Assembly (NCBI RefSeq): GCF_004010195.1
Contig: NC_057719.1
Location: forward strand, 20,006,480 to 20,070,479
Source of the DNA: Chiloscyllium plagiosum
Lineage: Eukaryota
DNA: 64,000 nucleotides
Direction: 5' to 3'
Both the position numbers and the translations under genes were made by a program. Numbering within the stretch: the stretch's first letter is position 1; every line of letters starts with the position of its first letter. A model generated the notes under the pieces. That model was not told where the DNA came from. It was given only the letters and a program-made list of their open reading frames with translations, and did no database searches. Positions 4,775 to 63,630 of the stretch are shown one piece after another.

Positions 4775-4978
4775 ACAACAAAACATTCCTGATGAAGGGC
4801 TTATGCCTGAAATGTAGACTCTCCTGCACCTCGGATGCTGCCTAACTGGCTGTGCCTTTCCAGCATAGACAGGTAGAATCAGGAGGTGCAGATGTCGACG
4901 TTTCTGGTGTAATCCTTTTCAGGACTTTTCAACTCTGATCTCCAGCATCTTCAGACCTTACTTTCTCCAACAATACAT
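4775..4978. mobile_element. PLE terminal remnant (family A), with an antiparallel related terminus and decayed hammerhead cores
   Basis: CTGATGA-AGGGC-TTAT-GCCT-GAAAT-GTA at 4789 (+) and a second decayed core on - at ~4893-4925. Flanked by near-identical CAACAA(A/T)ACAT. Confidence 0.65.
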
Positions 4979-5127
4979 CTGGTTGCCCAGAAACATGATT
5001 ACCACCCCTGTACACATGGCTGTTGATTCCCTTCTGCCACTTATGCCAAGACCTTTGCTACCAGCTGGATCATTATGGAGCAGACCACTAGCATCGCCAA
5101 TAATCCAATTCCAGTGCCTTGACTACT

Positions 5128-5265
5128 TGAGTTGGAGGTGTTGGTGTTGAACTGGGTAGGACAAGGTCAAAAATCACATGCCATCAGGTTATAGATCAAT
5201 GGATTTATTTGAAAACACTAGCTTTCAGAGTGCTTCTCCTTCATTAGGTGATTTTTGAACATGAC
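5128..5265 (-). mobile_element. PLE terminal remnant (family D)
   Basis: Homologous to 28572-28660 and 38423-38590, with a decayed hammerhead (GAAAGCTAGTG on -). Confidence 0.6.
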
Positions 5266-7602
5266 TATTTGAGGGGAGTTCTATGATATTTTCCAGAACA
5301 TGTCTCCAAGTTTGTGGGATGTTGTTGCATTCTCTGAAATGTATTAGGAGTACACGACATTGCCATCAGGTATTTGGAGGCATCCTCAGTGGCATTCAGG
5401 ACCCGTACCCTTCAGGCAAGTACCTGTGAGTACCCACATAAATACAGATTGCCTTAAGATTTCATCTCCTCACTACCATTGCTCCACAATTCGCTAGATT
5501 TTGATCCAGCTGTGAGGTATCATTACAGAGTTCCCTTGATTCAAACTGCACCCACCACAAATCTTCCCCTAATAACAACATCCAATCAACACACCTAAGA
5601 ATATGGGAAAGAAAATGTTTTGGCCTGTGGGTGACTTTGCCAATCTAAATGGTTTGCCACATTGTGATCCAGCATTGTTAGTGGAAGGCTCTTGGCTTTC
5701 ACTTGGGGATGGCCTTGAAAGGTGATATCGAGTCATAAAGTCTCAGCCTTGGAACTCACTGCCTCGGTGTAGTCTTGACTGTTTTCTCTCCATTAATGTT
5801 GCCAGACCTGTGGAGTTTCTCCAGCAATTGCTGTTTTTATGTCAAGGGCATGCCTGGCATCTTGGTGTGTGGACTCATTAGTATTCTCTACACTGTCCCA
5901 CAGCAGTCTTCATCAGGGTCCCCTGGAGTACAATTCATCTGTGACTTCACCCTTTGGTGAGCTGCGTTCCATTTGTGCACGCTAATTTACCACATGTAAA
6001 TCCTAACTCCATATTACCATCGAAGGAAGGGAATCCTAATCTATGGGTCATGGCTTGCTGTTGAGTTATGGGCTGATCAGTTAGGGTCAGGATTTCCAAG
6101 ACAGAAGCAGCAGCTGTGGAATGAGGCTTTAGAGTTAAAAGACCTCGGACTGGCTCTGCAAACTCTTTAAGTGTGTACATGTTTATTCCCTGTGAGTGTG
6201 GCTTAATGTCATGAAATCTAACGCATGATCCCTGACACCTACAGAGCCCACAAAATGTTTCTTTGTGCCTAAGTCCCTGCCACTTCAACAACAACCCTAC
6301 AATCACACTCCTCTGCCCTTATTAAGCAGGGAGCATACCAAGTATAAATCATTTGTTGGCCACGTTAAGTGGACAGAAGGGTGGAGAATTACTGCTCCGA
6401 GATATATACAATGCCTGGAAGGTACATGGCTGTAAGTGTCAGATAAACATGCTCAAAGGCTTTCCTCATGGGTCTATCCATGCTGGATAGGCAGCCATTC
6501 CTGAAAATCTGAAATCAGTGGTGGAATTTCATTGAGGCCTGAGCAACATGGGCTGTGGTCACATTACTGGCAGAATCAGGCTTCTTGCTTTTTTTTTATG
6601 CATCCGTTGAGCTGCAAGGTGAGTCACTTGCTAGTGGCAATTTCCAATTATATTTGCTTATGTTATATATGCTTAAATACCTTATTAATGGCCCAACTCA
6701 TCTCATTAATATTTAGCTTTCTAACTTACCAAACAAGCCAGATCAAGAAGTCTTCACTTGGAAGTCAGCGTGGTACCTGGTGACGTCAGCTTGCTGTTTC
6801 TGTCAAAGGGCATCCATGTGACACCATTATCTCAGGGCACACTCCATAGGCGTGAGCACAGGTGTTGGCTTCCAACATGTGCCAGCCTATGACAATCCTT
6901 CTGGGTTATGTGCATGGAGGATACAAGATACTGTACATTTCAGTGCCGCACATTAATCTGCACCAGCCACTATCAATGTAATGCCACAGCACTTAGGGAC
7001 CCACACCCAGCTCATGGACTGGACCAGGCTGCATTTTAGCAGAGAAACAAAAATAGGAAGCTTGTCAGCAGGCCTCAGTCAAATCAAGGGATATAATCTT
7101 TAGTCAGAGGGTCATTACACAGTATGCTAAGAGCAGTCATTAATATTAGTCCAGGGGCTTAGACATGGTTAGTTAGCCACTTGGGATGGTCAGAGTCAGG
7201 ATGCTTCCCATATAAGGGATGAGGAGCTAAATGCATGTCTTGTCTCCTTTTGTCCGTTGTGGACTGCTTTTGTCCTGGAATGACAAAGAGGCAGGCATTA
7301 TGGAAAGTATTTTAAAGGTTATTAGATCAGGCTAAATATGCAGAGCGACTGTCTCCTACCTCCTCCAAAATAATCCAATTTCTTTCTAGCTTTCAACCCA
7401 TGCCTCTTCCCTTTCCTGGTCTGTGCCCAACACCATAGCCTTCTGCAAACTTGGTCATGACGTCCCATCTTCTCCATATAGTGCCTGTGGGCTTTTCTCC
7501 TATTCACAACTCATTCCACAAAACCCTGTTAATTTCCAGTTCCTCACTTCTTCCTTTCATTCCAGCTGTGGTGACTAGAAGATGGATTGCAAGACATGGT
7601 AA

Positions 7603-7907
7603 TTAGATTACTTTCAGTGTGGAAACAGGCCCTTCGGCCCAACAAGCCTACACCGACTCTCCAAAGAGCAACCCACCCAGACCCATTCCCCTACATTTAC
7701 CCCTTCACCTAACACTACAGGCAATTTAGCATGGCAAATTCACCTAACCAGCACATTTTTGGACTGTGGGAGGAAACCGGAGGAAACCCACGCAGACACA
7801 GGGAGAATGTGCAAACTCCACGCAGACAGTTGCCTGAGGCGGGAATTGAACCCGGGTCTCTGGCGCTGTGAGGCAGCAATGCTAACCACTGTGCCAATGT
7901 GCCACCC
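7603..7907 (-). mobile_element. HE1-type V-SINE, full length
   Basis: Reverse complement has a tRNA head (TGGCACAGTGG; GGTTCAATTCC), a V-domain-like core and the tail GGGCCGAAGGGCCTGTTTCCACACTG..TAATCTAA. Closely matches 39256-39570. Confidence 0.9.
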
Positions 7908-7987
7908 ACAACAGATCTTGCTGTTAAATTTTGTGGCTTGTGATGGAAATCCATAGGTTTGCTTTCCTGACCACGAACTATGTGGAT

Positions 7988-8105
7988 GGAAAGTGAGGAC
8001 TGCAAATGCTGGAGACCAGTCCTGATGAAAGGCTTATGCCCGAAATGTCGATTCTTCTGCTCCTCAGATGCTGCCTGAACTGCTGTGCTTTTTCAACACC
8101 ACACG
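7988..8105 (+). mobile_element. PLE terminal remnant (family A) with minimal hammerhead core
   Basis: GTC-CTGATGA-AAGGC-TTAT-GCCC-GAAAT-GTC-GATTC at ~8019-8054. Confidence 0.7.
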
Positions 8106-10022: not shown

Positions 10023-10310
10023 ATCTTACAGAGGTTTATAAAGTCGTGAGGAGCAGACAGAAGGTGAGTAACAAAGGTCTTTTCCCTAAGATAGGGGATT
10101 TCAAAACTAGAGGGCATAGGTTTAAAGTGAGAATAGAAAGATTTAAAAGGGACCTGAGGGCAATGTTTACACACAGAGGGTGTTCGGTTAGTGGAATGAA
10201 CTATCAGAGGAAGTGGTAAATGCAGGCATAGTTACAACATTTAAAAGCCTGTTTAGCAAGGACATGAACATGAAACGTTTAGAGGCATGTGGCTCAAATG
10301 CAAGTAAATA
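10023..10310 (+). mobile_element. CR1/HER1 LINE 3' fragment
   Basis: KTRGHRFKVR..RFKRDLRGN-type CR1 C-terminal coding remnant. Confidence 0.8.
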
Positions 10311-10670
10311 GAGTCATAGAGCTGTACAGCATGGCAACAGCTTTTCAGTCCAAATTGTCCATGCTGACCACTTCTGCGAAATTAATCCAGTCCCATTTGC
10401 CAGCATTGGTCTATATTCCTCTAAACCCTTCCTATTCTTATACCCATTTAGATGCTTTTTAAATATATTACAATTGTACCAGTCCCCACCACTTCCTTTG
10501 GCAGCTCATTCCATACATGCACCACTCGCTGCATGAAAAAGTTGCCCCTTAAATCCCTTTTAGATCTTTCTCCTCTCAACTTAAACATATGCCCTCCAAT
10601 TTTCAACACCTCACCCCAGAGAAAAGTCCTTGGCTATTCACCCTATCCATACCCCTCATGATTTTAATAA
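10311..10670 (-). mobile_element. CR1/HER1 LINE 3' fragment (inverted relative to its neighbour)
   Basis: Reverse complement of the CR1 3' end seen at 16250-16612 and 52320-52650. Confidence 0.8.
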
Positions 10671-10671
10671 T

Positions 10672-18540: not shown

Positions 18541-18705
18541 AAGGCAAAAGTGAGGACTGCAGATGCTGGAAATCAGAGTTTAGATTAGAGTGGTGCTGGA
18601 AAAGCACAGCAGGTCAGGCAGCATCTGAGGAGCAGGAAAATCGATGTTTCGGGCAAAAGCCCTTCATTCCTGATGAAGGGCTTTTACCCGAAATGTCGAT
18701 TTTTG
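18541..18705. mobile_element. PLE family A fold-back terminus with hammerhead core
   Basis: Inverted pair AATCGATGTTTCGGGCAAAAGCCCTTCA / CTGATGAAGGGCTTTTACCCGAAATGTCGATT. Confidence 0.75.
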
Positions 18706-18949
18706 GCATGCTAACAAAAGAGCTTAAAACAGAGTGGAGAGGGAGAGGGTATAAAAAGGAAAAGGAGGGGGATGAGAAAAGAGGAGAGTAGTGAGCAAGT
18801 GCAGAGGCAGAGATCAAGATGGACTGGTATGATGTGGAAATGATAAAAGGTAACGAAAGAATGGAGAAATGGAAACTGAAAATACTGTGGATGCTGTTAA
18901 TCAGACACAAAAAAACAGAACTTTTATGAACTTTTTCCTAGCTACCATT

Positions 18950-18987
18950 AGTTCTGAAGAAAGGCCACTGGATCTGAAACGTTAACT
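18950..18987 (+). ncRNA. Minimal type I hammerhead ribozyme motif (PLE family C)
   Basis: AGTT-CTGAAGA-[stem II, partly decayed]-GAAAC-GTT-AACT. Stem I AGTT/AACT pairs. Confidence 0.6.
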
Positions 18988-20235
18988 CTGATTTCTCTCC
19001 TCAGATTTTGCCAGCCCTCTTGAGCTTTTCCAGCAATTTGTGTTTTTGGTTGTGTTGCAAAAAATGGAAATGGGTTGCATGGGACAAAGAAAGAGTAATT
19101 TGAGGACAGACAAGTTTGGAAGGGTTAAATGGTTGATGTACAGGGTGGATGTTTTCATGTTAACTTGGAGATTGGTACATATGGAGTCTGTGCATTGCAC
19201 TGGATTCATGCCTTGGTGTGATTTTTCCCTTACTGAGCTGGTATTAAAAATTCCTCTGAGTGAGGGGTAAATCCCTTTCAAAAAGCTATCTCACTCAGCC
19301 ACACAGGAGGTTCTTTGGTTGTGAGTAACATTTCAACTAGTTTGTGTTTAATCGATTCAATCATGACTTCCTGATTATTTCTGATCTTCTCTGGAATATA
19401 TTTCTTGATACTTACATTGCAATGATAAAGCACTACCTGCAAGAAATTTATGAAGAGCACTTTGATATTGATTAAAAAAAAGAGGTTGGTGCTTACAATG
19501 AGCTCTTCCAGCTCCCTTTATTCAACCATTTCAAACTATTGTCAGGTAAAACATGCTTTACCATTTTATTGTCATAATAGGTAGTGGTCAATCTATAAAT
19601 CAGATCATGTTCTGTTTTACTTCCTGATGTGTAAAAATTTAGAAACAATGCAGATGTTATTGCAACAAGAAATGTGATATTAAAACTTTCCAAATGTGTA
19701 TTCTGATAGATTTTATATTTTCCATATTTGTAAAATGTTAATTCTTTCTAAACAAGATGTAAAGTATCTTACTTTTACACAATAATTGTTTCTTCTGCAG
19801 ACTTAAATGCTGCTAATTAGATATAATGGTCTAACATAAAGACAAAGGGAAAAACTTTAAAGCAACAATTTGTTTTGATAAATGCAAAATACTATGGATG
19901 CTGGAAATCTGAAAGAAACACAAAGAATAACAAAGGTCTTGGAGGATCTGAAGAGAGAAATAGAGTTAACATTTTGAGTCTGCAATGACTCTTTTTCTGA
20001 ACTGAAAACTGTTGGAGAATAGTTTTTATTTTATACTTTTGTCAGAGGAAGAGGGCACATGTACAGAGATGCAATGCAAAAGACAAAACTGTTTTTAACA
20101 GTGGAGGAAGGGAAAAAAAGCAACATACAAAAGGTGTAAATTAAGGCATGAAAGGCGTAGGATTGGTCCTTTCAAATTAAACAGAACACAACCATAACAT
20201 TGCTGTGGGGTATGCTGGGGGTGTTGGTGGGTGGG

Positions 20236-21090: not shown

Positions 21091-22284
21091 ACGAACAATA
21101 AATAACAACAGAAGTTGATTGAAAAGCTCAGCAGGTCTGGTAACATTTGTAAAGAGAAACCAGAAGTAACTTTTTGGGTCCGGTAAACCTTCCTTAGAAG
21201 CATTCGGACCCGAAACATTAATTCTGATGTCTCTTCACAGATGCTGCCAGACCTGCTGAGCTTTTCAAACAACTTCTGTTTAATTTTTTGATTTACAGCA
21301 TTTGCAGTTCTTTCAGTTTTTATGATGAACAATAATTGCTGGCCAGCCCATGTGTCATGAGTGTATAGAAAAAAAAGATATTACCACCAAAGACATCCTC
21401 CCCTCCCCTCCACTGTTCACATTCCACAGGGACTGTCCCCTTCCTGACACTCTGGTCCACTCCTTCATCACTCCTAATGATCCCCCACTCTGCCATGTCA
21501 ACTTTCCATGGAATTGCAGAAGGTATAACATTTGCCTATTCACCTCCTCCCTCCTCACTCTCCAAGGCCCCCAGATGAATTGACCTTCTTTCAATCCGAT
21601 CTACCTCATCCACTGCTCAAAAATTGGTGTTATTTTACATTGGCAAGGCTGAATGAAGACTGGACAACCACTTTGCGGAACATCTCTGCTCCGGCTGTAG
21701 GAATGGCCCAGTCCTCCCAGTTGTTCACCATGTCATTAAACCGGCTTGTCCTCATGTGAAGGCATTGCTCTCCCCTGGGACATTACTGTCCTGGGCTTGC
21801 TGTATTATTTCAATGAAGTGAGATTGATAAATAGCACCTCATTTTCCACTTGAGCACGTGAGTCTTAAGGTCTCAATATTGAATCCAATAACTTCAGAAG
21901 CTGACAGCATTATGTCTGTTGTCTACTTTTCTTCATTTTTCTACACCTTTCCCCAACAGTTTGTCATGCGTGTGTCTTGTTTACTTTGCACTTATTAATT
22001 TTCTATCTTTCACACAATAGTTTACACTTTTTTACAACTTCCTTTTTCTTTTTTCCATTATTAACAACACATTTGTCTTTTGCACCAGCACTCTATTCCA
22101 TCTGCTCTCGTGGTCCTACTCTATGCTTGTTGAAACTATTGAAAATAAACTATTTTCTCTGTTGGTAAAATTTCTGTGGCTTTGAGTTGGTGTGTGCTCT
22201 AAGTTTGTGTTATTATGTGATCATTTTACATGCATCATTAACTGGGGTGACATCCCAGAGGGGCTCTTATTGTTCACATTCAGT

Positions 22285-24714: not shown

Positions 24715-24892
24715 AATAAAACAAAGAATATCGGATGATGGAGATCTGAAACAAAACAGAAATTGCAGGAGAATCTCAGTAGGTCTGACAACATCTATGT
24801 TTTGAAGAAAGATCAGTGGACTTGAAATCTGCCTTCTCTTCACAGATGCTGCCCAACTTCCTGAGTATCTTCAATACTTTCTGTTTTATTTC
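24715..24892. mobile_element. PLE family C inverted termini
   Basis: CAGAAATTGCAGGAGAATCTCAGTAGGTCTG faces CAGATGCTGCCCAACTTCCTGAGTATCTTC as an inverted pair. Confidence 0.55.
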
Positions 24893-25107
24893 ATACCTAT
24901 TTTGGTCATTAGAATCCATCAATATTTATTATGAATTTAAAATTCTCAGTAAGCTTTGTTTTCATATTCAAATACTTTTCTCAGATCTAATATTTGCCAA
25001 AGAGTATTCACATTTTAGAGTGCACTGGTTCATCAGGGGAAAGGATCATTGAACAGGTTTGTTTTGATTCAAGCAGTTCTTGATTAGCTCGCAGTGAGGA
25101 TGAGATA

Positions 25108-25260
25108 ACAACCGAAAGAACTGTAAATCAGAAACAAAAACAGAAACTGCTGGAAAAGCTCAGAAGGTCTGGCAGTATCTGTGGAGGGAAATCAGAGTTA
25201 ACATTTCGGGTCAAGTGACTGTTCTTCAGAACTGATGGTAGTGAGGAAAATGTTGGTTTA
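25108..25260 (-). mobile_element. PLE family C terminus with hammerhead core (25196-25233)
   Basis: Reverse complement reads AGTT-CTGAAGA-ACAGTC-ACTT-GACCC-GAAAT-GTT-AACT. Confidence 0.7.
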
Positions 25261-26414: not shown

Positions 26415-27050
26415 TATTCTGTAAGTCAGAAGGTTGTCTAGGCATGCCCTGTGCCAGATTTGAGCACACAAACTAGGTTGGTCCTTCACTACTGACAGAG
26501 TGCAGCGCTTTTGGAAGTACTGTCTTTCAAATTAAACTGTAAACAAGAGTTCCTTCTGTCTTCTCAAGGACGTAATTGAACAGTTGTCGCATTTTGAAGA
26601 CGAGTAGTGTATTCCTGGTTACCAGGTTAATACTTATTAATATGCATGTTAATTAGTTAATATGTATTCCTGAATCTCCATTAGTATTATTTTCAACAAC
26701 AAAAACATAAATTGCTGCAAAAGCTTAGCGGGTCTGGAAGCATCTGTGGATGCAGTGACCCTTCTTTGGAACTGTCCTGATGCAGAAAACATTAACTCTG
26801 CTGCATCTCCAAAGATGCTGTCAGACTTGTCAAGCTTTTCCAGCAATTTATGTTTTTGTTTCTGTTTTCCAGCATCCACAGCTCTTTGGTTTTATTATCA
26901 TAATTTTGCTCATTGCTGTTAATGGTGCTTTGTTGCACACAAATTGAGATTTCAATGTTTGTCTAAATGATGACAGTGACCCACATCAGGATGAAGTACT
27001 GTGGGATGCACAATTAATAAGATCAGGGATATTCTATAAACATAAATTCT
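26415..27050 (+). mobile_element. DeuSINE (SacSINE1-like) remnant interrupted by a PLE family C fold-back (26697-26895)
   Basis: AGTCAGAAGGTTG...TTTGAGCAC...TGTCTTTC...GGACGTAA...TTTGAAGA.GAG, then after the insert CATTGCTGTT..TGGTGCTTTGTTGCACACAAATTG. Confidence 0.55.
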
Positions 27051-27874: not shown

Positions 27875-28044
27875 TGGAAATGTGTTGCTGGAAAAGCGCA
27901 GCAGGTCAGGCAGCATCTAGGGAACAGGAGAATCGACGTTTCGGGCATTAGCCCTTCCTGAAGAAGGGCTAATGCCCGAAACGTCGATTCTCCTGTTCCC
28001 TAGATGCTGCCTGACCCGCTGCGCTTTTCCAACACATTTCCATC
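27875..28044. mobile_element. PLE family A fold-back insertion with 13-bp TSD
   Basis: Near-perfect palindrome. TTTCATACACAGC occurs at 27862-27874 and 28045-28057. Confidence 0.9.
27955..27990 (+). ncRNA. Minimal type I hammerhead ribozyme motif (family A), core intact
   Basis: TC-CTGAAGA-A-GGGC-TAAT-GCCC-GAAAC-GTC-GA, giving CUGANGA, a 4-bp stem II, GAAA and a GUC site. Stem I is only 2 bp here. Confidence 0.75.
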
Positions 28045-28296
28045 TTTCATACACAGCCCCAAGTTGTTTAGCTACCATAAAAACAATCATTTGTTTGCAA
28101 GCAGCTGGCTTTTGTCATTAAAGACTGGTCAATAGGCTGAGGTATTTGTGTGTCCTCACCTGAAGTTTGCAGGCAAATAGCCTCAATAGTCACTCCTGCA
28201 TTACAGGTAAAGGGTCAATGTAGTTCTGAGTACCAGAAACTAATTAGCCAGAAAGCTAGCCAGAATTAAACAGGAAAAGGACTCATTCACGCTAAG

Positions 28297-29424
28297 TGTT
28301 ACGAATTAACCATGTTCAAAAGGAAACAAGACTAAAAAATGTAAAATAACCTGCAAAGACCAAGAATCCTGAAATTGATTGTTCAACTATCAATGTTGCA
28401 TGATCGACTCTTCACAAATCATCAAGAGAGACTGATCTGTATATCTTTTAATTTACTTTTTTTTGGACTCATTTCTTATTTTAATCTCTGTGCTATGTTA
28501 CTATTTTTTCTTGTATGTAGTGGCAAGTAAACTCACTGGTTTATTCATTCAAGAAAGCGTGTTTGAATTGGGTTAAAAATCACACAGCACCAGGTTATAA
28601 TTCAACAGGTTGACTTGGAGGCACTAGCTTTCGCAGCACTGCTCCTTCAGCAGGTGGTTGTAGTGGATAAGATCAAAAGACACAGAATTTATAATAAAAG
28701 TTTACAGTATGATGCAACTGAAATTATATATCGAAAAAAAAACTTGGGTTGTTTGTTAAGTCTCTCATCTTTTAGAATGACAATGTTGGTTTCAATTCTT
28801 TCACATGTAAATCCCAGAATGTTTTATTAAAGTTACATTCTCAAGTCAACTTTAAAAATAGGTGCTATGTCATCTCAGATAATGCGTTGAAGGTGTGAGG
28901 TGTCCTGTGTGAGGCTGTCTGTGCCCCAATGTTCAGACTGATTCTATTTCTAAAAAAGAGATTTACAGAATCTACATGGATTCATGCAGTGTTTGAGCAA
29001 AATAAAATACAATTCTGCAAGTATAAATTCACTCCACAAACATACGTGTGAGTATACATGTGGGTGTGTGTATGTGCGTGGTGGGTGGGTGGGGGTGTGG
29101 TAGTACACAGACACTAATACCCAACCCCCACACATACACCCACATGCATACACACACATATATAAGTTTGTGAATCCAACACTGGCACCTCGAAATCATG
29201 TTTGAATTGGCTCCTTTTAAGATGTGAAGTCATTTGGCCTGGGAGAAAGTTATCTATAAGGAAGAAATCCTTTTTAAACTAACCTTGTTGTGACCAACAA
29301 AGTCTCGGAGAATGTAAAAAGAATGGGAGCCTGTTCATCCATCCTCACCCAGATACTAAATAATTTAGGGAATCCATCTGAAACTATAAACTTGGAGGGA
29401 TTTGTACATTACCTGGTTGTAACA
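28297..29424. mobile_element. Possible solo LTR interrupted by a PLE
   Basis: TGTTAC...GTAACA inverted termini. Flanks TAAG/TAAA match at only 3 of 4 positions. Confidence 0.35.
28572..29198 (-). mobile_element. PLE family D insertion with internal inversion and 12-bp TSD
   Basis: TGTTTGAATTGG at 28560-28571 and 29199-29210. Hammerhead on - at 28622-28656 (CAC-CTGCTGA-AGGAGC..GCTGC-GAAAG-CTA-GTG). Inverted TG-rich/CA-rich segment at ~29030-29175. Confidence 0.7.
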
Positions 29425-31413: not shown

Positions 31414-31519
31414 TTTAAATCTAAATCCAATTTTACTTTAATGCAAAGACACATAAAATTATCTGTAAAATAAATACAGGCCTGCTTTTGTTGGTTCAGA
31501 AGAATCTGCCCCATCAGCT

Positions 31520-32615: not shown

Positions 32616-33209
32616 GGAGAAAGTGAGGACTGCAGGTGCTGGAGATCAGGGCTGAAAAATGTGTTGCTGGAAAAGCGCAGCAGGTCAGGCAGCATCCAAG
32701 GAGCAGGAGAATAATATTACAATCTGGATGAAGAAACTGAGGGCATTGTTGCTTAGTTTGCAGATGACACAAAGAGCAGTGGAGGTACAGGTAGTGTTGA
32801 GGAAGTTGGGAGGCTGCAGAAGGTCTTGGACAGGTTAGGAGATTGGGCAAAGAAGTGGAAAATGGAATACAATGTGGGGAAGTATGAGGTTACATACTTT
32901 GATAGGATAAATAAAAGCACAGATTATTTTCTAAATGGGAAAAGGCATTGGAAATCTGATGCACAAACAGACTTAGGAGGCAGAGTCCAAGATTCTTTTA
33001 AGGTTACCATGCAGGTTCAGTTGTCATTTAGGAAGGTAAATGCATTGTTAGCATTTATTTCAAAAGCTGAAAATGTAAGTAAGGGGGGAGGTGTGGGCGC
33101 AAGTTTTGCATTTCTTGCAGTTGCAGGGGAAGGTGCCGGGAGTGGAGGTTGGGTTGGTGGGGGGTGTGAACCTGACGAGGGAGTCGCTGATCAGCAACAC
33201 ATTTTTCAG
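32616..33209. mobile_element. Chimeric insertion: PLE family A terminus, CR1 RT fragment, PLE internal piece and inverted terminus, with 14-bp TSD
   Basis: CTCCCAATTGATTG at 32602-32615 and 33210-33223. CR1 FADDTK...LDRLGDWAKKWKMEYNVGK at ~32713-33065. PLE GTFPCNCKKCKTC on - at ~33095-33140. Confidence 0.8.
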
Positions 33210-34235
33210 CTCCCAATTGATTGAGCTGTCCTGCCATACCTTAGCCTTAAAACTTTAAGCCACTTTATTTGCATTAACCTTAGTTACTTTAGCTTACTCT
33301 AACTTTACTATTGTACTATTAACTATAAATTGGAGATGAGTAGAAAGTTGAATTTCTTTGCCTTTACTCACAAATCAACTCCCTCTCCCGTATCTGTCAG
33401 TGTGTGACATTCCCTGTCCGAGTTTAGAAATTTATGTTTTCAAAGTAACTGGAGTTGAAACACAATCCCTAACAGCAGTTACAAAGCAACTAATGAACTC
33501 ATAGCTTTTCTGTAATGGTGCTTTTCAACTGGTTTCGCAGCTGCAGATCCGTCTGTTGCCAGGTCTTCATTCCAGTCCAAAGCCCTGTGGTAGCTTCACC
33601 ATTGCATGATTGGCAAGTTGTTTGACAGTCTTTTCCAAAAATAAATATCGTGGATTGCTCTCCAGCTAATAGGCAAGACCACCGATGCTAAAACAAGTGT
33701 CCACCCGTTAATCAAAGAACACATCTGAACATATTGAAAACATAAAATGATAGAATGCCTTAGATTTTTCACAATTACTGATGGAAACAAAATTTGATTA
33801 TCTGGACCCATACATACACTGGACGGACTCTTGTATGGGTCCAGTCAAAGTGGGCTATGATGAAATTTGTGGCAGAATCAGATGAGGGGTCTGACAAAGC
33901 CCATCTAACATTGGGAGCATCTCACTACTTCTGTTATGCTTTTGCGGAGCAGCAAGGTGATTGTTTTCACTAGGTGCTGGTGAGTTGTCAATGAAGGGAG
34001 ATTACAGCTTGTTAAGGGCCTTATTAATGCCACAACTCACCTTATTAATATTCAGTTTCCTATTCTAACAAGTGCTCCAAAGATGTAGAAGCATTCATCT
34101 GTCATTTCTATGATGCATTATTTTGTAATAAGCTTTTCATTAATTAATTGTGAGTGTGCAGTTATGCATTATGCATTCATTCGGTATTATGCATCATACA
34201 TTATGTATTTCCTTCTACTTCTTTCAACCTATTCA

Positions 34236-34940
34236 ATTCAACTCTATTGGTTATTCACATGCAGCTTACTCTACATTGGCAAGACCAAATGCAGAGTGGG
34301 TGACTGCTTTGCTGCACACTTCTGTTCTGTCCTTAAGAAGGACCTTGACTCTTCAGTTGCTCTTCATTTCAATGCACCGTGTTGCTCTCATGCCAACATT
34401 TCTATCCTAGGCATGCTGCAGTGCACCCAGTGAAGGCCAGCACAAGCTGGATGAACATCACCTAATTTTGTGCTTTGAGCCTTCAGGATTCAATATTGAT
34501 TTCTTGAGTTTAACAAGTTCGCAGCATGAACACTGCACTCCATTTTGATTATGCTTCTTCCCTGATTGCCACATACCACACCCCACCACCTCCACACATC
34601 AGTGCCTTGTTTGCATGGATTTGCTTTCAGCATATCTGACCTGTTTTCTATTATTCATACCTCCTATTAGCACCTATTTTGCTTCTATATCGCCCTCCAA
34701 TACCACCAGCACTCTGTTTGCTTTTTGCTTCGGGACCCTCACTATCTGTTCCACTGTCTCCTCCAGCTCCTTTGTCAATGATGTAAAGAGCTATCATTTT
34801 GCAAGCAGACTTCAGTTCTGAAGAAGAGTCCTAATTGTGCTCAAAACTGTTTCTCTCCACAGGTGCCAGACTTGCTGAGTTCCTCCAGTACTTTTAGCTC
34901 TTATTTCAGAACTTGATCATCAGCAGTTTGGTGCTTTCAT
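34236..34940 (+). mobile_element. PLE fragment: GIY-YIG endonuclease C-terminus and family C terminus
   Basis: CSLLYIGKTKCRVGDCFAAHFCSV...VALHFN. Decayed AGTTCTGAAGAAG core at ~34814. Confidence 0.75.
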
Positions 34941-35999: not shown

Positions 36000-36592
36000 G
36001 ATATGTGATATCCCCTTTTACAGCAGGCAAAACCCTTCTGCCTTAATCTCTTCCCATCAACACATAATTATGAAGAATACAATAATCAGTTTCTGTAATC
36101 CATTCACACATTATCACAGGACATTGACATTCATCGGGCTTGGTAAATTCATAATTGCTACTTTAAACTATGTAATGACAATCGCCCATGTGACTGATGA
36201 ACGTTTAATTCCTATAAAATATACCATCTCTGTGTGTAGGGCAGAGAGTCGTGAAGAAGTGTCACTACAAGTAGACACACGGCTACTTTGGAGACGCTTT
36301 GAATCTCTCGTTGGCTGTCCGATAAAAGAGCTACTGCTGTTGTACAGAAAACTTGTGTTGTCCGGATTTGTGGAACTAAGCAGACATCAACAATATAGGT
36401 TGCAAAACATGGCAGCCAGTATCAAATGGCAGAGCAGATTCGATAGGCCAAATGGTCTAATTCTGTTCCTGTATATTTGGTTGAATACAATTACTGATGA
36501 GGAAGGCCATAATTCCACCAAAGTTTGTGAGAAGATTTGTAACTCGGGTGCTCGTTGTTGTGGTTCTGTTCGCCGAGCTGGGAATTTGTGTT

Positions 36593-36632
36593 GCAGACGT
36601 TTCGTCCCCTGTCTAGGTGACATCCTCAGTGC
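36593..36632 (-). ncRNA. Minimal type I hammerhead ribozyme motif (family B), intact
   Basis: GCA-CTGAGGA-T-GTCACCT-AGAC-AGGGGAC-GAAAC-GTC-TGC: stem I GCA/TGC, stem II, core and GUC site. Confidence 0.8.
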
Positions 36633-37220
36633 TTGGGAGCCTCCTATGAAGCGCTTCTGTGATCTTTCCTCCGGCATTTGTAGTGGGTTGAATCTGTCGC
36701 TTCCGGTTGTCAGTTCCAGCTGTCCGTTGCAGTGGCCAGTATATTGGGCCCAGATCGATGTACTTATTGATTGAATCTGTGGATGAGTGCCATGCCTCTA
36801 GGAATTCCCTGGCTGTTCTCTGTTTGGCTTGACCTATAATAGTAGGACAACCAGTCGAATTCATGTTGCTTGTCATCTGCGTGTGTGGCTACTAAGGATA
36901 GCTGGTCTTGTCGTTTCGTGGCTATTTGGTGTTCATGGATGCAGATCATTAGCTGTCTTCTTGTTTGTCCTATGTAGTGTTTTGTGCGGCCACTGCAACG
37001 GACAAGCTGGAACTGACAACCGGAAGCGACAGATTCAAACCACTACAAATGCCGGAGGAAAGATCACAGAAGCGCTTCACAGGTGGCTTTGTTTGTCCTA
37101 TGTAGTGTTTTGTGCGGCCACTGCAACGGACAGCTGGAACTGACAACCGGAAGCGACAGATTCAAACCACTACAAATGCCGGAGGAAAGATCACAGAAGC
37201 ACTTCACAGGAGGCTCCCAA

Positions 37221-37260
37221 CCACTGAGGATGTCACCTATTCAGGGGACGAAACGTCTGC
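37221..37260 (+). ncRNA. Minimal hammerhead motif (family B), one stem I mismatch
   Basis: CCA-CTGAGGA-TGTCACCT-ATTC-AGGGGAC-GAAAC-GTC-TGC. Confidence 0.7.
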
Positions 37261-38422
37261 AACACAAATTCCCAGCTTGGCGAACAGAACCACAAAATAA
37301 TTCCACCATTAGGAACCTAACAACTGTAGTAGTTAATACATTTTGAATGCTTCCAGGACTTTTCCTAAATTCTAGAACAGCCAGAGGAGTAGGGCAAATA
37401 TTTGCAAGGAGTAATGGTAGTAAATTAATTGCTTCAATTTTAGGCTGACAAAGAATATTCAGATTTCAAATTTAAAAAACTGCCATTTGCAGATCAGATA
37501 GACCAAAATAAAACCCTCAAGAGAATTAATTAAAAGAGTTGCTATGTCTGTCAATGTCGATGAATCCAACAGCTCCAGTAATTAGTGAAAACTTTTAATC
37601 AGGAATCTACAAGTGCTAAACTGCTCAAATGCATTCTTCTGATTTCTGCAGTTTTCCCAAATTATTTAAATTGGAGCCTGACTGTCTTTTGAATAGGCTC
37701 TAATTAAGCAAAAAAAATTCATTAGGGGAAACAGTCTTTACAGTCAATCATACAAAATGCCATAGAATATATGTTATAGGATCAATTTAGCAATTGAGGT
37801 AAACATTACTTATATAACAATGAAAAATATCGTCACTTTATGGAACAATTCAATTTGTGCATTAATTGATTTCTTAAAAGTCAACAATACATAATGTTAA
37901 CAAAACGTTGATAATCAATTTATTAAAATAAAAACAAACTAACAAATTAGATATGAAATAGTCTATGGAATTAATATAAAATGACCAGAAGATTAATATT
38001 ATTATTTTTAACTGTTTCTTCAAATATTTGTGTCATTGGCAAGAGCAACATTTACAGCAAATTCACGTCTTCTGGAACTGCGTCACTCTCTTGGGTGTTG
38101 GCACATCTAGTGAAATTTCTTTCCCATAGTGTTTTGAGAAAACTATATCCTACTAAGGCAACTCAATGGACACTTAAGAGTCAAGCACATTAATGTGGAT
38201 CTGAAATGAGATCATGGATGAATGACAGATTTCCTGCTCTGAAAGACATCTGTGAATCTGATTGTTTTTACAACTATGCAGTGCTTTCATGATAGTTGTC
38301 AATGAGACTAGTTTTTTTATTCCAGATTTACTAAATTCCTTGAATGGATTTCCCTTGTCTGCTGTGGTGAAATTTGACCTCAGGTCTCAGGACCATTAAT
38401 TCATGCCATTCTATTCCTAATG

Positions 38423-38590
38423 TGGAGGTGTTGGTGTTGGATTGGGGTGAACAAAGGTAAAAATCACAGATCACCAGGTATTAGTCCAACAGGTTTATAT
38501 GGAAGTATTAGCTTTCAGAGCACTGCTCCTTCATCAGATAACTAATAAACCTATTGCAATATTACCTGGGTGTTCTGTGATTTTTAATTC
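38423..38590. mobile_element. PLE family D fold-back terminus with hammerhead core (38506-38540, -)
   Basis: Reverse complement reads TAT-CTGATGA-A-GGAGC-AGT-GCTCT-GAAAG-CTA-ATA. Confidence 0.7.
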
Positions 38591-38819
38591 TATTCATAGT
38601 GCAGTAACATTACCATCATATTACCATTTCTCCTTTGATTGCAGTTTTATTAACTCATTTGATCAAATTCAAAATCACACATTTGCATGTGCCCACTACT
38701 TATCCACACTTGAACAGGAACGTACAGTTTCAGGATAGAGAAAGGTTTATTCACTTCCCACCAATGCTAAACAAATTCAATAGTTGCATAAACTGAACAT
38801 ATTATGGCAAGTCTCTTAT

Positions 38820-38902
38820 CAACGAAAACAGAAATTGCTGGAAAATCTCAGCATGTCTGGCAGCATCTGTGGAGAGAAATCAGAGTTAATGTTTCGGTTC
38901 AA
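38820..38902 (-). mobile_element. PLE family C terminus fragment
   Basis: CAGAAATTGCTGGAAAATCTCAGCATGTCTGGCAGCATCTGTGGAGAGAAATCAGAGTTAATGTTTCGG. Confidence 0.65.
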
Positions 38903-39255
38903 GTCTCTTGGTTGTTATGATGACATTCTGCGTGACGTTCTCCAATTTGCAACAGTTCTAGACAGCGTACCCTAAACTGTCAAGTTCCTGAGTGAACAGG
39001 CATAAACTGGCTCACATTCTTTATTCATACACCTCTCAGTTTGTGGCAACAAGGTTAATTTAAAAATGAACCCTTCACTTGTGGGGTATCTTCCTCCCAG
39101 ATCCAAATCAACTTGAGTTTTAAAAGTAATCAAGTTAACAAGACTTTTTCGAGGTAACAAAGTATGAGTTTATAAGTTATTAAATGCAAGAAACATTAGT
39201 TACACAACATGCATGCATAGATTATAAATAAGAGATTAGATCGAACAGGATAAAT

Positions 39256-39766: not shown

Positions 39767-40585
39767 TACTAAAAACCAACTGAGTTTGATTTTATTGTTT
39801 TTGCCAACCTTAAACCAATGAGACGATCCAATGTTAGGGGTATAAAAGAAACAGGCATTTTGAAAGTCAGTCAGAGAGACCAACTAGCATCGAGAAAGTA
39901 ACTGCCATTGATAGAGACTGCCATTCAAAGCATGCTCTATCAAAGGTACCTTTTTCATATGAAACATCTCTGCAGTAAAAGACAGAAGATGATCCAGGGA
40001 GATCTTCAGCAAAAAGGAGAAGGGCAACGAAGACAACAGCCGCTATGTGGTTTTGAAATTAAGTTGATGTAATTTTAATATGGATTTTTATTGGACCCAG
40101 TATATTGTTATAGAGTTTGAGGCAGATAACAAGCCTTTAAGAGAATGGGCTGAAAAATGTGTTGCTGGAAAAGCACAGCAGGTCAGGCAGCATCCAAGGA
40201 GCAGGAGAATCGACGTTTTGGGCATAAGCCCTTCTTCAGGAATCCTGAAGGAGGGCTTATGCCCGAAACATCGATTCTCCTGCTCCTTGAATGCTGCCTG
40301 ACCTGCTGCGCTTTTCCAGCAACACATTTTTCAGCTCTGATCTCCAGCATCTGCAGTCCTCAGTTTCTCCTTTAAGAGAATGGGGACTTAGAGTTGTGAA
40401 TGATTATTGTTTAATGTTCACTTTTAGAGTTAAGGAATAAATTATTTTATTTTATTTTATTTTATCTTTAAATCATGGAATTTTGTACTTCTCTGTCACT
40501 CATACCTTAACGGATTACGAGGCAGAGTGAGCTTTTCTAGGTGCTTGGTTTAACTAACAGAAGGGTTCACTGCTGTGATGTAACA
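39767..40585 (+). repeat. 5' LTR (left end not matching the 3' LTR; contains a PLE fold-back insert)
   Basis: Aligns to 46242-46798 from TACTAAAA.CCAACTGAGTTTGA onward. Ends in TGTAACA. TATAAAA at ~39841. Confidence 0.85.
40150..40368. mobile_element. PLE family A fold-back insertion in the 5' LTR, 16-bp TSD
   Basis: CCTTTAAGAGAATGGG at 40134-40149 and 40369-40384. The insert is absent from the 3' LTR. Slightly mutated hammerhead cores on both strands. Confidence 0.92.
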
Positions 40586-44150: not shown

Positions 44151-44299
44151 AATACAATAAAGAGAGGGAACTGGAGAAACAGGTATTAATTACTGCCCCA
44201 CAGAGTGAGGAATCAAATCCAGATGTTGTGGAGTTTGATGTACTTCAATATATGTTAAAAGGTTTGTTATAGCAGTATGAAGACATATGCAGAAATAAG

Positions 44300-46023: not shown

Positions 46024-46798
46024 TGTTGTGAAGTTGAAGGTGTGTACTGTAACTTTGAGAGAGTGAATGCTGTTTTGCACTGAGAGCTTCTAAGTACCTA
46101 TCATATGACTAGCTAGCAGTCTCCAACTGCACTGGAAAATTGAAATTATGTAACATTTGGCTGTGAAATAGATAACTTGAGTTGGTTGCTATTTTGACAA
46201 CAATTCAAATTTAAACAATCAGTTTAGATTATGCCCCAGCATACTAAAACCCAACTGAGTTTGAACCTCAACCTATGAGACGATCTGATATTTGACATAT
46301 TAAAAAAAAAGCACTTTGAAAGTCAGACAGAGAGACCAACTACCATCGAGAAAGTAACTACCATTGAGAGAGACTGCCCTTCAAAACACGCTCTTTCAAA
46401 GGTACCCTTTTCATATGAAACATCTTTGCAGTAAAAAACAGAAGATGATCCAGGGAAATCTTTAGCTAAAAGAAGAAGGACTCCAGAGAAGACAGCCACT
46501 GTGTGGTTTTGAAATTAAGTTGATGTAATTTTAATATGTATTTTAATTGGAACAGTATATTGTTATAGAGTTGGAGGCAGATAACAAACAGTTATGAGAA
46601 ATGGGGGATTAGAGTTGTGAATGGTTGTTGTTTAATGTTCACTTTTAGAGTTAAAGGATAAACTGATATTATTTTTTTCTTTAATTAGTGTAATTTAGAA
46701 CTTCTCTATCACTCATACTTTAACAGATTATGAGGCGAAGTGATCTTTTCTGGGTGTTTGGTTTAATTAGCAGAAGGGTTTACTGCCATGTTGTAACC
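46024..46798 (+). repeat. 3' LTR
   Basis: Starts with TG after the PPT and ends in TTGTAAC(C). Homologous to 39767-40585 over its right ~550 bp. Confidence 0.88.
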
Positions 46799-52030: not shown

Positions 52031-52114
52031 TACCCAGTGAAGGTATATACTTAGAAAACAGGCACAGTCTCTACATTTCCAATCAATGTGGAAATGGGAT
52101 TGTTTAAAGGGAAG

Positions 52115-52652
52115 TTGTCATGTTGCAGCTGTACAAGACATTGGTTAGGCCACTTTTGGAACATTGCATGCAAATCTGGTCGCCTTCCTATCGGAAGGAT
52201 ATTGTGAAACTTGAAAGGGTTCAGAAAAGATTTATAAGGATGTTGCCAGGGTTGGAGGATTTGAGCTATAAGGAAAGGTTGAATAGACTGGGGCTGTTTT
52301 CCCTGGACCTTATAGAGGTTTATAAAATCACGAGGGGCTTGGATAGGATAAATAGACAAAGTCTCTTCCCTCGGGTGGGGAAGTCCAGAACTAGAGGACA
52401 TAGGTTAAGGGTGAGAGGGGAAAGATATAAAAGAGACCTGAGAGGCAACCTTTTCACACGGAGGGTGGTACATGTATGGAATGAGCTGCCAGAGGAAGTT
52501 GTGGAGGCGAGTACAATCACAACATTTAAAAGGTATTTGGATGCATATATAAATAGGAAGGGTTTGGAGGGATGTGGGCTGGGTGCTGGCAGAAGGGACT
52601 AGATTGGGTTGGAATATCTGGTCGGCATGGTTGATTTGGACCGAAGCGTCCA
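52115..52652 (+). mobile_element. CR1/HER1 LINE 3' fragment
   Basis: ORF 52120-52602: LYKTLVRPLLEHCMQIWSP...RTRGHRLRVRGERYKRDLRGNLFTRRVVHVWNELP. Confidence 0.9.
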
Positions 52653-54504
52653 TGACTAAAATAAGATTGCTTTTCCAGACATTAGACAATTTCTCAAGAT
52701 TGCATGCAAGAATCAGTAAAATTATTCAGCAGATCTTTAACTACTTTTGGCATTACCCAAGAAGAGACCTGTACTAAGAGGAGAAAGAAGGAGCCTGTAT
52801 CTAATATAGTTATCTTTGTGGGAATCTCACCTCAGCCAATTTACCAACCTACAAGCGGGATCTGAGGCATGCTGTCACTGTTAGAGTGAAAGTGACCACA
52901 ACCTTCAACACTTATGTTACAGAAGCATTACAGGAAACCAGATACAAGGGTATCTGGTTATTAACAAAAATAATTTCTGTCTATTCATGCACAATGAAAA
53001 CATTTATATTGCTTTAGCTCAGTTTGATAATAGTCCCAGATATTTGAATGAAGAGGCAATATATCTGCAGAATTGTGGAGACAACTGTTTGCACCCAAGT
53101 GACATTTCCAAATCTCATCCCACATATTTATATTAAGTGCATCATTTCGAATACTTAACTATTTAATTCATTTCCAACTAAAGACTCTATCCTATGGAAC
53201 TATTCATAACAAAGGCAGCAAGAGGCAGGATGGCTACTGGATAGCAAGAAACACCTGTTACTTATATATCTTAACTCTTTTGTGTACAGATATCAGTTCT
53301 ACAGAAGAGTCTTTGTGAGAATCACTGGGAATTGCAGTCAAGTAGACCATTGCGATGCTAATGGGAAACTTTCTGTATCTGGATAGGTGCCAGGCTTTGA
53401 TGTCAAATGTGTGAGGCATTGTTTTAATGAATTGAATTAATATGTCACCTCTTACATTACTTAGCAATCAGAACAGGACTAATGATCAATATCTCAGATT
53501 ATTCAAGAGATGTTAGTAGTCATTCATCTGTTGTTGACAACCAGCCGGAATAGAACATGAAACGTGTCCATGTTAAGTCTAAAGGCTGTTAACTCGAATT
53601 CTAGGGTCTGAAAATTGTTGGCTGCAAAGATCATGAATGCATTGGTCCTAAACTTCCAGAATTCTTTAAATTCTGAAGGATCCCAGTGCATTGGAAAATG
53701 GCTAATTCAACACCTTTATTCAAGAAAGGAATGAAGCAGAAAGCAAGAGAATGTAACCCAGTTAGTCTAACACTTGTCAAAATGAACATGCGAGAATCCA
53801 TCATAAAGGAGGTTATAGTGAGGTGTCAGAATTTTAAGTCTCCCCTTCAAAAGACTTTTTTCTCACTTTAAAACTGTTTCCATTTTAATCGACTCTCCTC
53901 AATTCAAGTACCATCTCTGATTTTAGATCATTACACAGTTTGACAAGAGAACAGCAGTAGGTTGTTCGGCCCCTTGAGTGTGTTCCACCATTCAATAAGA
54001 TCATAGCCAATCTGACATTCCTCACGTGAACTTTCCTGCCTGTTCCTCATAACCCTTGATGCCCCTACTTACTAAGAACTTATCTATCTCAGCCTTAATT
54101 ATACACAAGTACTCTGCCCTGCAGCTCTACATAGCAAACTCATTACCCTCTGAGAGAAGAAATCCCTTCCCATCTTAGTCTTAAATTCACTTACCTTAAT
54201 TCTGAGACTGTGCCCTCTGGTACTAGACTTTCCCATGATGGGAAACATCCTCTCAGCATTTACCCTGTCAAGCCCCTTAAAAATTCTATATGTCTTAATG
54301 AAATCATCTCCTATTCTCCTAAACTGCAATGAGTAGAGTCCAAACTATAATCTTTGCTTGTAAAACAATCCCTCCATACCAGGGATTATCCTTAGGAACC
54401 ATCTCTGAGATGCCTCCAATGAAATAATGTATTTTCTTAAACAGGTGAGCTTCAACAGTCATAAAACTCCATGTGTGGTCTCAGTACAGTTTCAGTAAGA
54501 CTTA

Positions 54505-55088
54505 GGTAAAAACAATGACTGCAGATGCTGGAAACCAGATTCTGGATCAGTGGTGCTGGAAGAGCACAGCAATTCAGGCAGCATCCGAGGACAGGCAAAA
54601 TCGACGTTTTGGGCAAAAGCCCTTCATCAGGAATAAAGGCAGAAAGCCTGAAACATGGAGAGATAAGCTAGAGGAGGGTGGGGGTGGGGAGAGAGTAGCA
54701 TAGAGTACAATAGGTCAGTGGGGGAGGAGATGAAGGTGATAGGTCAGGGAGGAGAGGGTGGAGTGGATAGGTGGAAAAGGAGTTGGGCAGGTCGGACAAG
54801 TCCGGACAAGACAAGGGGACAGTGTTGAGCTGGAGGTTAGAAACTAGGATGAGGTGGGGGAAGGGGAAATGGGGAAGCTGTTGAAGTCCACATTGATGCC
54901 CTGGGGTTGAAGTGTCCCGAGGCGGAAGATGAGGCCTCAGCGACAGGCCACTATAAATACCGGAGGAAACACCACAGAAGCGCTTCACAGGAGGCTCCCA
55001 AGCACTGAGGATGTCACCTAGACAGGGGACGAAACGTTTGCAACAAAAACTTCCAGCTCGGCGAACAGAACCACAGCAACAAGTACCC
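54505..55088. mobile_element. Fusion of PLE family A (-) and family B (+) terminal pieces, each with a hammerhead motif
   Basis: Family A core on - at ~54600-54635 (CTGATGA-AGGGC-TTTT-GCCC-AAAAC-GTC). Family B begins at ~54936. Confidence 0.8.
55002..55041 (+). ncRNA. Minimal hammerhead motif (family B), GUU site
   Basis: GCA-CTGAGGA-TGTCACCT-AGAC-AGGGGAC-GAAAC-GTT-TGC. Confidence 0.75.
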
Positions 55089-61974: not shown

Positions 61975-62658
61975 CATAGAATCCTCACAGTGCAGAAAGA
62001 GGTCATTCAGCCCAGTCAGTCCGTACCAAATCTCCAAAGAATATCCTACCCCTACTAAACCTCCCATCCTATCCTGTAAGCCAGCATTTTACTTCACATC
62101 CCTAGACACTATGGCCAATTTACCATGGAAAACCCACCTAACTTGCATATCTTTAGACATTGGGAGGAAACCGGAGCATCCAGCAGAAACCCACGAGGAT
62201 TATCTACATTCCCATGCATTATCTATAGTGAGGACAATGGTATTGCAAGAGCTTTCAGAAACATCCCAGGCATAACTCTTCTCAATTAAATGTCCTAAGA
62301 CTTGGTCCTGGTGGCCATGTGGGACGATTCTACATCTGACAGAGAGTGCCTTCCATAAGCTGGATGATCTGTATTTAACTTGGTACAAACACTCCAAATT
62401 GAAAATTGGATATCACCTTCCTATTCTCAGAATGATACATGCAGATCTGAGTTGAATCATGAAGAGTCCAGTAATCTAGAAGGTTCTTCATCTTTGTCCT
62501 CCAAACAAAAAGATTTGAGTGCAAAATTCTTAAGAACACACTAAAGTAATTGAAGATTACAGAGAATATACAAACTCCACACAAACAGTCACCCAAAACC
62601 AGAACTGAACCTGGGACTCTGAGGCAGCAGTGCTAAGCGCTGAGCCATCATGCTATCC
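61975..62658 (-). mobile_element. HE1 SINE split by an RPL4 fragment (SINE parts 61975-62195 and 62559-62658)
   Basis: The left part ends in GAAACCCACG. The right part resumes with GAGAATATACAAACTCCAC and runs to the tRNA head. Confidence 0.8.
62212..62558 (+). pseudogene. RPL4: Fragment of a processed-type pseudogene of 60S ribosomal protein L4
   Basis: With frameshifts it translates as [25 protein letters not shown] / [16 protein letters not shown] / [39 protein letters not shown] / NKKI..KNTLK. This is collinear with vertebrate RPL4 ([48 protein letters not shown]). Confidence 0.92.
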
Positions 62659-63204
62659 TATTATATTAAAAGACAGCAATTGATGTCTGTTGTCATGGCT
62701 ACTGCCACATTGATGAGCTTTATATTTCAGATTTATGAACTGAATGTAAATTCTAATCACTGCCAGGGAGGGATTCTGAACCCATGTCCTCAGTGCATTT
62801 ATCTTACATTACTAATCCAGTGATATTACCACTGTGCCACCATATCTCCACACAATGCAAATATTTTAAAAATATGAATGCACCACAGGCCAGACTGAGT
62901 GCTGACATCCCACAATCATATCACGGCTTTTATCTCTGCATCACGACCCACCATTACAAAAATTGAAATCTTGCATCCTGCCTAATGCAGTCACCCTGCC
63001 ATCATCACTCTTGCAAAACAAAACAGCAAAATCTTGTTAACAACATCCCAACGTCCAACACATCTCTGCATGGATATGGCCACATGACATGAAATACTTA
63101 ATCTTTCTGAATGAATTTGAAGAGGTAATTACACAGGTACAACTTTGAAATCTATTCAAAGTCACCACAAAATTGATAAATCGATAAAAATAGCACTCTT
63201 TATA

Positions 63205-63630
63205 CGAACAAAAACAAAAGAACTGAGGATGCTGGAAATCAAAAACAAAAAGGAGAATTGCTGGAGAAATGTTGCTTGAAGAATGTACTGAAGAAGGGCC
63301 ACTGGACCAGAAATGTTGACTCTGCTTTGTCTCCACAGATGCTTCACAGGGTGGCATGGTGGCTCAGTGGTTAGCACTGCTGCCTCGCAGCAGGGTTTCA
63401 AGTTTGATTCCAGGCTCTGGCAGACTGTATGTGTGGAGTTTGCATGTTCTCCCTGTGTCTGGGTGGGTTTCCTCCTGCAGGTCAGGTGCCTTCATCAGAG
63501 GGAAATGGGTCTGAGTGGGTTACTCTTCAGAGAGTTGGTTGGGACAAAGGGCCTGTTCCCACACTGTAGGGAATCTAAACATGTTGCCAGATCTGCTGAG
63601 TTTTTCCAGTAATTTCTGCTTTTGACTCTC
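63205..63630. mobile_element. PLE family C fold-back split by an HE1 SINE (+63349-63578)
   Basis: CTGAAGAAGGGCCACTGGACCAGAAATGTTGACT at ~63288. The HE1 head is GGGTGGCATGGTGGCTCAGTGG. The PLE resumes with TGTTGCCAGATCTGCTGAG. Confidence 0.75.

Follow-up and report, generated by a model that had tools for sequence, protein, structure and literature searches.

Minimal hammerhead ribozymes have been known in Penelope-like elements (PLEs) since 2014. According to the passages of PMC4209133 compared here (all comparisons with cited papers are with passages of those papers), one genome can hold several covarying minimal hammerhead families, mostly as solo or opposite-strand copies, and these PLE hammerheads are inactive as monomers and show low activity as dimers; the dimer claim is reviewed in PMC6765202. 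Cleavage by PLE hammerheads was found to be protein-assisted and dispensable for insertion, and the two 3' ends of PLEs were traced to two reverse transcription initiation sites (PMC11167929). Here we analyzed hammerhead-like motifs that a first-pass annotation had sorted into four families (A to D) in a window of Chiloscyllium plagiosum DNA (the whole stretch analyzed, 64,000 nt of contig NC_057719.1). The motifs are very probably minimal type I hammerheads in the pseudo-long terminal repeats (pLTRs) of at least three PLE lineages (Poseidon-type B; A and C together with a fifth variant, E; and D), and the copies in the window dead, 5'-truncated retrotransposition products.

The motifs resemble the hammerheads of PMC4209133 in the loopless palindromic 15.2-16.2 helix, the extra nucleotide before stem II and the G10.1-C11.1 pair, and also in the occurrence of several covarying families in one genome, mostly as solo or opposite-strand copies. 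In contrast to Schistosoma hammerheads the stems are shorter (stem II 4-6 bp, stem I 2-4 bp), and unlike the PMC4209133 set most copies are decayed; shark families are not named in the main text compared. G10.1-C11.1 and the extra nucleotide after A9 hold at family level in A to D but are broken in many single copies. The palindrome is ACGT in A, B, C and E and AGCT in 3/3 D copies, and stem I has 3 bp in B and D and 4 bp in C. One D copy (38501-38545) has TAT/ATA in stem I in place of CAC/GTG with pairing kept, which is either a compensatory change or a junction accident.

Both strands of the whole window were scanned with a full descriptor (exact core, G10.1-C11.1, at least 4 stem II pairs, Watson-Crick 15.2-16.2, UH, and stem I of at least 2 bp). 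The null model consisted of 300 order-4 Markov simulations of the window, and 20 arms were scored position by position. A recognisable copy was located at or near each of the 15 sites named in the first-pass annotation, six of which (5216, 25196, 28622, 36593, 38506 and 54600) are minus-strand copies cited by their left edge. The annotation had at least 15 copies fitting the motif; all 15 can be recognised as such, but the full descriptor is passed at 4/15 only (27958, 36629, 37224 and 55005). When G-U pairs were allowed, 7/15 passed, the additional sites being 4789, 18954 and 38537. By positional scoring, all core letters are intact at 11/15 named sites, and core mutations are present at the remaining four: 40245 (both arms), 54630, 5247 and 28653. 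CpG decay (CG to TG or CA), in stem III and at 11.1/12, is behind much of the damage. About ten further degenerate arms, as well as variant E (4922, minus strand), were absent from the original site list. The simulated means were 0, 0 and 0.03 hits; thus, the motifs are not chance matches.

The claim that the stems differ between families yet still pair was borne out: among nine copies, 6/8 pairs change on both sides, and 0/500 shuffles reach the score. In the MAFFT alignment of the nine copies, 72 % of cells pair versus 57 % after shuffling, with slid controls at 21-48 %; the sample is small, comprising four independent families and copies originally selected on these very features. The switch of stem III from ACGT to AGCT in D, with the palindrome kept, was upheld by positional scoring, on which it rests because MAFFT put stem III of D in the wrong register. 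A metagenome pattern that fixed the core and stem II and left stem I free returned at least 123 loci. Among the 127 matches listed, the 124 with flanks represent 53 distinct flank pairs, and stem I of at least 3 bp is formed in 34/53 of the pairs listed, whereas 5000 permutations averaged 11.1 and reached at most 20. The exact family A pattern had 0 matches in the metagenome and viral contigs. The covariation is a record of selection on the ancestral active elements and not of function in the present copies. The four contexts had also been described as otherwise unrelated, which is wrong for A and C because the downstream tail is common to both; the tails align with E-values of 4e-9 to 2e-4 (longer matches). 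As to the several independent PLE lineages proposed, there is more than one, but they number about three (A/C/E, B and D) and not four unrelated ones.

The connection with PLE coding sequence is clearest for family B. Its minus arm at 36616-36997 codes for the latter half of a GIY-YIG domain, interrupted by one frameshift (near 36844). The first piece of this fragment matched two proteins in the protein search, both labelled Chiloscyllium punctatum. The fragment shares 87 % identity with P0002 across the final 76 residues, and P0002 carries reverse transcriptase (RT) and PF26215. The final codons of the B open reading frame (ORF) are the ribozyme core and the stop is inside loop II, with the same end in 3/3 B copies; in addition, a frame running through the tail opens with an ATG where stem II begins. 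Poseidon PAc of Anolis carolinensis (Frangieh 2024, PMC11167929) likewise has a stem II ATG opening a frame through the tail, two 3' ends, an uncleaved RNA template and an AC-rich tail, whereas the additional stop of the upstream ORF in loop II distinguishes family B from it. Compared with Poseidon PAc the family B ATG is only a candidate start, and P0002 begins further in. Protein P0001, annotated as a MAP3K7 isoform of Chiloscyllium punctatum, ends in PLE GIY-YIG sequence through exonisation or as an annotation artefact.

In the family A copy at 54504-54940, a 20-residue ORF end (54874-54933) lies about 245 nt upstream of the core. In many metagenome loci the same core is likewise preceded by an ORF end that this peptide matches (best E-value 3e-7); when three upstream ORF pieces from such loci were scanned, one was over the GIY-YIG cut-off and two were under it. 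At 54935, 193 DNA contigs carry on with one consensus. The PLE origin and minimal type I architecture first assigned to all four families stand for B and are strongly supported for A, while C would share them through the tail it has in common with A, and D through its insertion anatomy only. The A/C/E group, whose GIY-YIG end differs from that of B, is presumably Neptune-like, a label that we assume apart from one CX4CxxC motif. This motif, in a fragment without database match inside an A-bounded insertion (32616-33210), fits the CX2-5CxxC Neptune linker (PMC8557442). Atlas matches were also obtained but were rejected as ferredoxin look-alikes, all sub-0.9.

Several results weigh against the assignment of the motifs to PLE ribozymes. 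The RT match of P0002 (27.4 bits) is under the Pfam cut-off of 29.6. No match was found in protein searches with two A-type peptides, Pfam gave no hit for three short window fragments or the CxxC fragment, and no PLE RT remnant was found within the window. No ORF link of their own was found for C or D. Stem I of family A is weak (2 bp, a U-U mismatch and one further pair), and the hammerhead dimer is suboptimal in 5/5 copies, at 5 to 21 kcal/mol above the best cofold. For E, a search upstream of the pLTR did not find a GIY-YIG endonuclease either.

Self-comparison of the window revealed that the copies are micro-insertions, many of them head-to-head pairs, and the short copies are uniform in size (100-130 bp). 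Target duplications of 10-16 bp are clear in 9/20 tested insertions, 11/20 being without one, and the pair at 40150 has a paralogous empty site at about 46600 (46506-46676). In families A, B and D the 3' end takes two forms separated by about 35-40 nt, generally with one on each arm, and such long and short ends were also described in PMC8557442 and PMC11167929. The second arm is often joined at 1-3 nt of microhomology. Inverted arms with a 30-40 bp tail at one end (tails and pairs in A, B and D, pairs in C) recall the endonuclease-positive (EN+) PLE units of Craig 2021 (PMC8557442), which have an inverted truncated arm by the 5' end and a one-end 30-40 bp tail. The features are listed below, with positions such as -4 and +5 counted from C3 of the core.

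2285..2358, minus strand: family C micro-insertion, degenerate core, 5' end at about -2, 12-bp target duplication
4785..4865, plus strand: family A arm, core 4789, start at -4, wobbles at 10.1-11.1 and 15.2-16.2
4866..4968, minus strand: variant E, decayed hammerhead 4922, head-to-head with an A-like tail on the plus strand
5132..5261, minus strand: family D insertion, core 5247 mutated, long 3' tail, 14-nt inverted short arm, 12-bp target duplication
5779..5840, plus strand: family C tail fragment starting near the cleavage site
7989..8103, plus strand: family A arm, core 8022, start at -2, preceded by an inverted tail-only arm
18545..18704, no single strand: A-A head-to-head pair, core 18670, junction +3/-4
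18870..19073, plus strand: family C copy, core 18954, 25 nt shared upstream, preceded by an inverted tail piece
19900..20005, minus strand: degenerate family C copy, start at about -6
21096..21326, no single strand: C-C head-to-head pair, 12-bp target duplication
24720..24895, no single strand: degenerate head-to-head C pair
25110..25254, minus strand: family C copy, core 25229, stem II damaged
26690..26905, no single strand: C-C head-to-head pair with an internal deletion
27875..28045, no single strand: A-A head-to-head pair, complete hammerhead 27958 (plus), 13-bp target duplication, folds as one long hairpin
28571..29370, minus strand: family D copy, core 28653 mutated, upstream limit approximate, no ORF found
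32616..33210, no single strand: composite insertion of an A tail arm from 1 nt past the cut site, RT like that of long interspersed elements (LINEs), CX4CxxC linker and short A end, 14-16 bp target duplication
34812..34930, plus strand: degenerate family C copy, start at about -6
36521..37296, no single strand: B-B head-to-head insertion, complete hammerheads 36629 (minus) and 37224 (plus), 12-bp target duplication
36616..36997, minus strand: Poseidon-type PLE ORF, C-terminal GIY-YIG half, frameshift near 36844, last codons and stop in the hammerhead
38420..38588, no single strand: D-D head-to-head pair, core 38537 (minus), G-U at 10.1-11.1, 10-bp target duplication
38818..38904, minus strand: family C fragment starting in stem II, 10-bp target duplication
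40150..40368, no single strand: A-A head-to-head pair, junction -4/-2, both cores mutated, 16-bp target duplication
46506..46676, plus strand: paralogous empty site of the 40150 insertion
54504..54940, minus strand: family A copy, core 54630, G12 mutated, about 310 nt of upstream sequence including the GIY-YIG ORF end at 54874-54933
54941..55088, plus strand: family B end repeat, complete hammerhead 55005, fused head-to-head with the family A copy
63215..63345, plus strand: family C arm, core 63288, start at about -3, preceded by an inverted tail arm

At 54504-55088, A (minus) is fused head-to-head to B (plus) inside a LINE fragment and no target duplication was found there; either two RNAs were copied into one break or two insertions occurred successively. 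A pair joining two families in this manner differs from the units in the passages of Craig 2021 (PMC8557442). The insertion at 32616-33210, whose single target duplication encloses an A tail, RT sequence of LINE type, part of a PLE linker and a short A end, suggests several template switches. Between the B arms (36961-37115), the sequence is rearranged: an end repeat is present in partial, inverted form, and 30 nt of the GIY-YIG start are duplicated. Head-to-head hammerhead pairs with related GIY-YIG ends were also seen in metagenome contigs L032, L038, L093 and L102.

The PLE reading would work as follows. In full-length elements, as is established for the class, the ribozyme would lie at or after the ORF end and would cleave only when two copies of one family pair through the palindromic ACGU/AGCU stem III. 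The PLE protein would then make a staggered cut and begin copying the RNA downstream of the ribozyme, using either of two sites separated by about 35-40 nt; of this step, the 10-16 bp duplications and the two alternative 3' ends are observed. That the template was uncleaved RNA is shown by the copies themselves, most of which extend across the cut site. In A, C, D and E, where the boundaries are likewise observed, complementary DNA (cDNA) synthesis would usually stop 2-6 nt before the core, and the product would often fold back or join a second arm. The copies would decay afterwards, chiefly at CpG.

The 5' ends were tallied for 30 arms holding some part of the ribozyme; eight tail-only arms and one arm interrupted by a short interspersed element (SINE) were excluded, and for two C arms and one A arm that the script mis-anchored, the start was taken by eye. 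A start within -6..+5 was observed in 18/30 arms (A 8/10, C 7/13, D 2/3, E 1/1 and B 0/3). Cleavage-defined 5' ends were rejected as the main class, with 2/30 arms beginning near the cut site. Because the boundary precedes the ribozyme instead of falling at its cut site, the RNA that was copied had not been cleaved. Stalling as a general property of PLE hammerheads was rejected as well: among 65 metagenome copies from six families, selected for intact cores, five end at most 7 nt from the core, and the boundary is therefore not general to PLE hammerheads. A literature search, for which subscription texts and supplements were mostly out of reach, found no description of a 5' boundary at stem I, and the sharp boundary differs from what the passages of Craig 2021 (PMC8557442) describe.

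Genome-wide depth was obtained from four sequencing runs aligned to 54450-55140 (691 bases), covering families A and B only, and the figures given are those among the 18 of 1040 rows listed. A loose-end peak at 54634 corresponds to -4 of family A and not to the cut site, and comprises at least 587 contigs in DNA run X1, 202 reads in X21 and 95 contigs in X15. Read depth drops across this boundary in 3/3 runs giving alignments. The RNA library X21 is single-cell poly(A) and is no test of transcript starts or cleavage.

YYANWYY is the initiator consensus. In the three A and C copies that have upstream sequence, the sole match to it in -40..+10 has its A at -4, the frequency in the window being 0.013 per position; 11/81 metagenome flanks have a match at -3, and the initiator argument is weak, having been made after the fact. 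For family A, a 3' splice site at -4 was rejected as there is no AG, and the best match to a downstream promoter element, sought by eye, had one mismatch. The Drosophila Penelope transcript starts 46 nt ahead of an intron of 75 nt, the end of which was mapped to helix I (PMC2377424, PMC4209133). That the boundary represents run-off at the RNA 5' end is plausible but unproven. We tentatively raise the possibility, which we hold short of probable, that the PLE transcript of the A/C lineage starts at an initiator with +1 at the first base of stem I (-4), and that reverse transcription primed in the 5' tail copy runs off after about 100-130 nt and then snaps back or joins a second cDNA.

The -4 boundary could instead be a conservation edge between subfamilies with differing upstream sequence, combined with a microhomology bias at A/T-rich targets, and not a real stop; we regard this as rather doubtful. 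Joints from 54634 to 54730-54754 are listed, so that subfamilies with other upstream sequence do contribute, which weighs against a real stop, and the ATT preferred by the Anolis PLE endonuclease (PMC11167929) is the family A sequence at -4. However, the X1 loose ends at 54634 are long, at a median of 255 nt, and agree poorly (0.33), in contrast to the other X1 peaks, whose short concordant loose ends (15-17 nt, agreement 0.57-0.76) point to subfamilies. Moreover, an inverted junction or target duplication pins down many of the boundaries in the window, and family C has no ATT at -4.

The uniform 100-130 bp size and the sharp 5' boundary would also be expected if the short copies were a separate non-autonomous SINE-like or retrozyme-like family, with short masters beginning at stem I and borrowing PLE proteins. 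PLE-derived hammerhead elements of this kind, the non-LTR (long terminal repeat) retrozymes, have been described in vertebrates including one chondrichthyan (10.64898/2026.07.22.740005), and share with the present copies the type I hammerhead and the origin in a PLE pLTR. They are head-to-tail tandem repeats, whereas self-comparison showed the present copies to be dispersed (solo) or inverted (head-to-head), with no head-to-tail arrays among them. Such a family is unlikely here, since the boundaries range from -6 to +5 and recur across several subfamilies, and longer copies of the same families reach into ORF ends.

The copies had further been seen as potential self-cleavage sites on both strands, which is not supported, and we consider it very improbable that they work as such in host transcripts. 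Four copies pass the full descriptor, both A and B are present in an RNA run with B strand-biased about 7:1 (202 vs 30 at 55002-55025), and family A sequence in a DNA run mostly keeps G12 (3.6 of 4.8 million depth at 54610). But 11/15 sites are damaged, solo copies have no nearby same-strand partner of their own family, published monomers are inactive (PMC4209133), and no loose-end peak occurs at the cut site among the rows listed. When four inverted pairs were folded (plus strand only), long hairpins were predicted and the pair probability of G10.1-C11.1 was 0.0 because the inverted arms pair with each other, which sequesters the ribozyme. Rfam microRNA matches at 27915 and 40196 are inverted pairs far under the gathering scores and were rejected. 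Outside the group of A, C and E, stem I pairs poorly between families, and the D palindrome cannot pair with the others; dimers would therefore be lineage-specific. Based on the folding results and the activity reports of PMC4209133 and PMC11167929, the copies are read as fossils of functional ribozymes and not as active sites. In run X21 the strand bias of the B end repeat (54954-55097, about 7:1, A being unbiased) may reflect oligo-dT priming on A-rich tracts. Chance matches or artefact deserve practically no credence, for although Rfam found no hammerhead in the window at E<=1, the null means of 0-0.03, the covariation and the ORF links refute them.

Other repeats were also found in the window. 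An abundant dispersed repeat, which we take to be a tRNA-derived shark SINE-like element, is located at 7602-7907, 15866-16032, 31098-31425, 39250-39567, 41045-41249, 44789-45078, 61975-62195 and 63348-63578, with 39365-39567 and 41047-41249 being inverted copies of 96 % identity. From their translations, 10025-11270, 16041-16605, 52108-52645 and 55543-55736 are presumably decayed CR1-like LINE 3' fragments. Decayed LTR-retrotransposon-like fragments with zinc knuckle and pol-like peptides occupy 42075-44694.

As the ribozyme class was already known, the chief gain is its extension to a shark-type genome. Double-stranded RNA is likely to arise from the long inverted pairs. What stands out is the large number of copies that begin immediately ahead of the motif, a position where the element RNA may start. 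The sharp boundary before the ribozyme gives a precise position and points to a possible start site, and this position bears on two questions, the truncated inverted ends of PLEs and the role of the ribozyme. If the start-site reading is true, hundreds of micro-insertions would form a fossil map of transcription start, the origin of inverted PLE ends would be explained, and the A-B fusion at 54940 may be two RNAs in one break.

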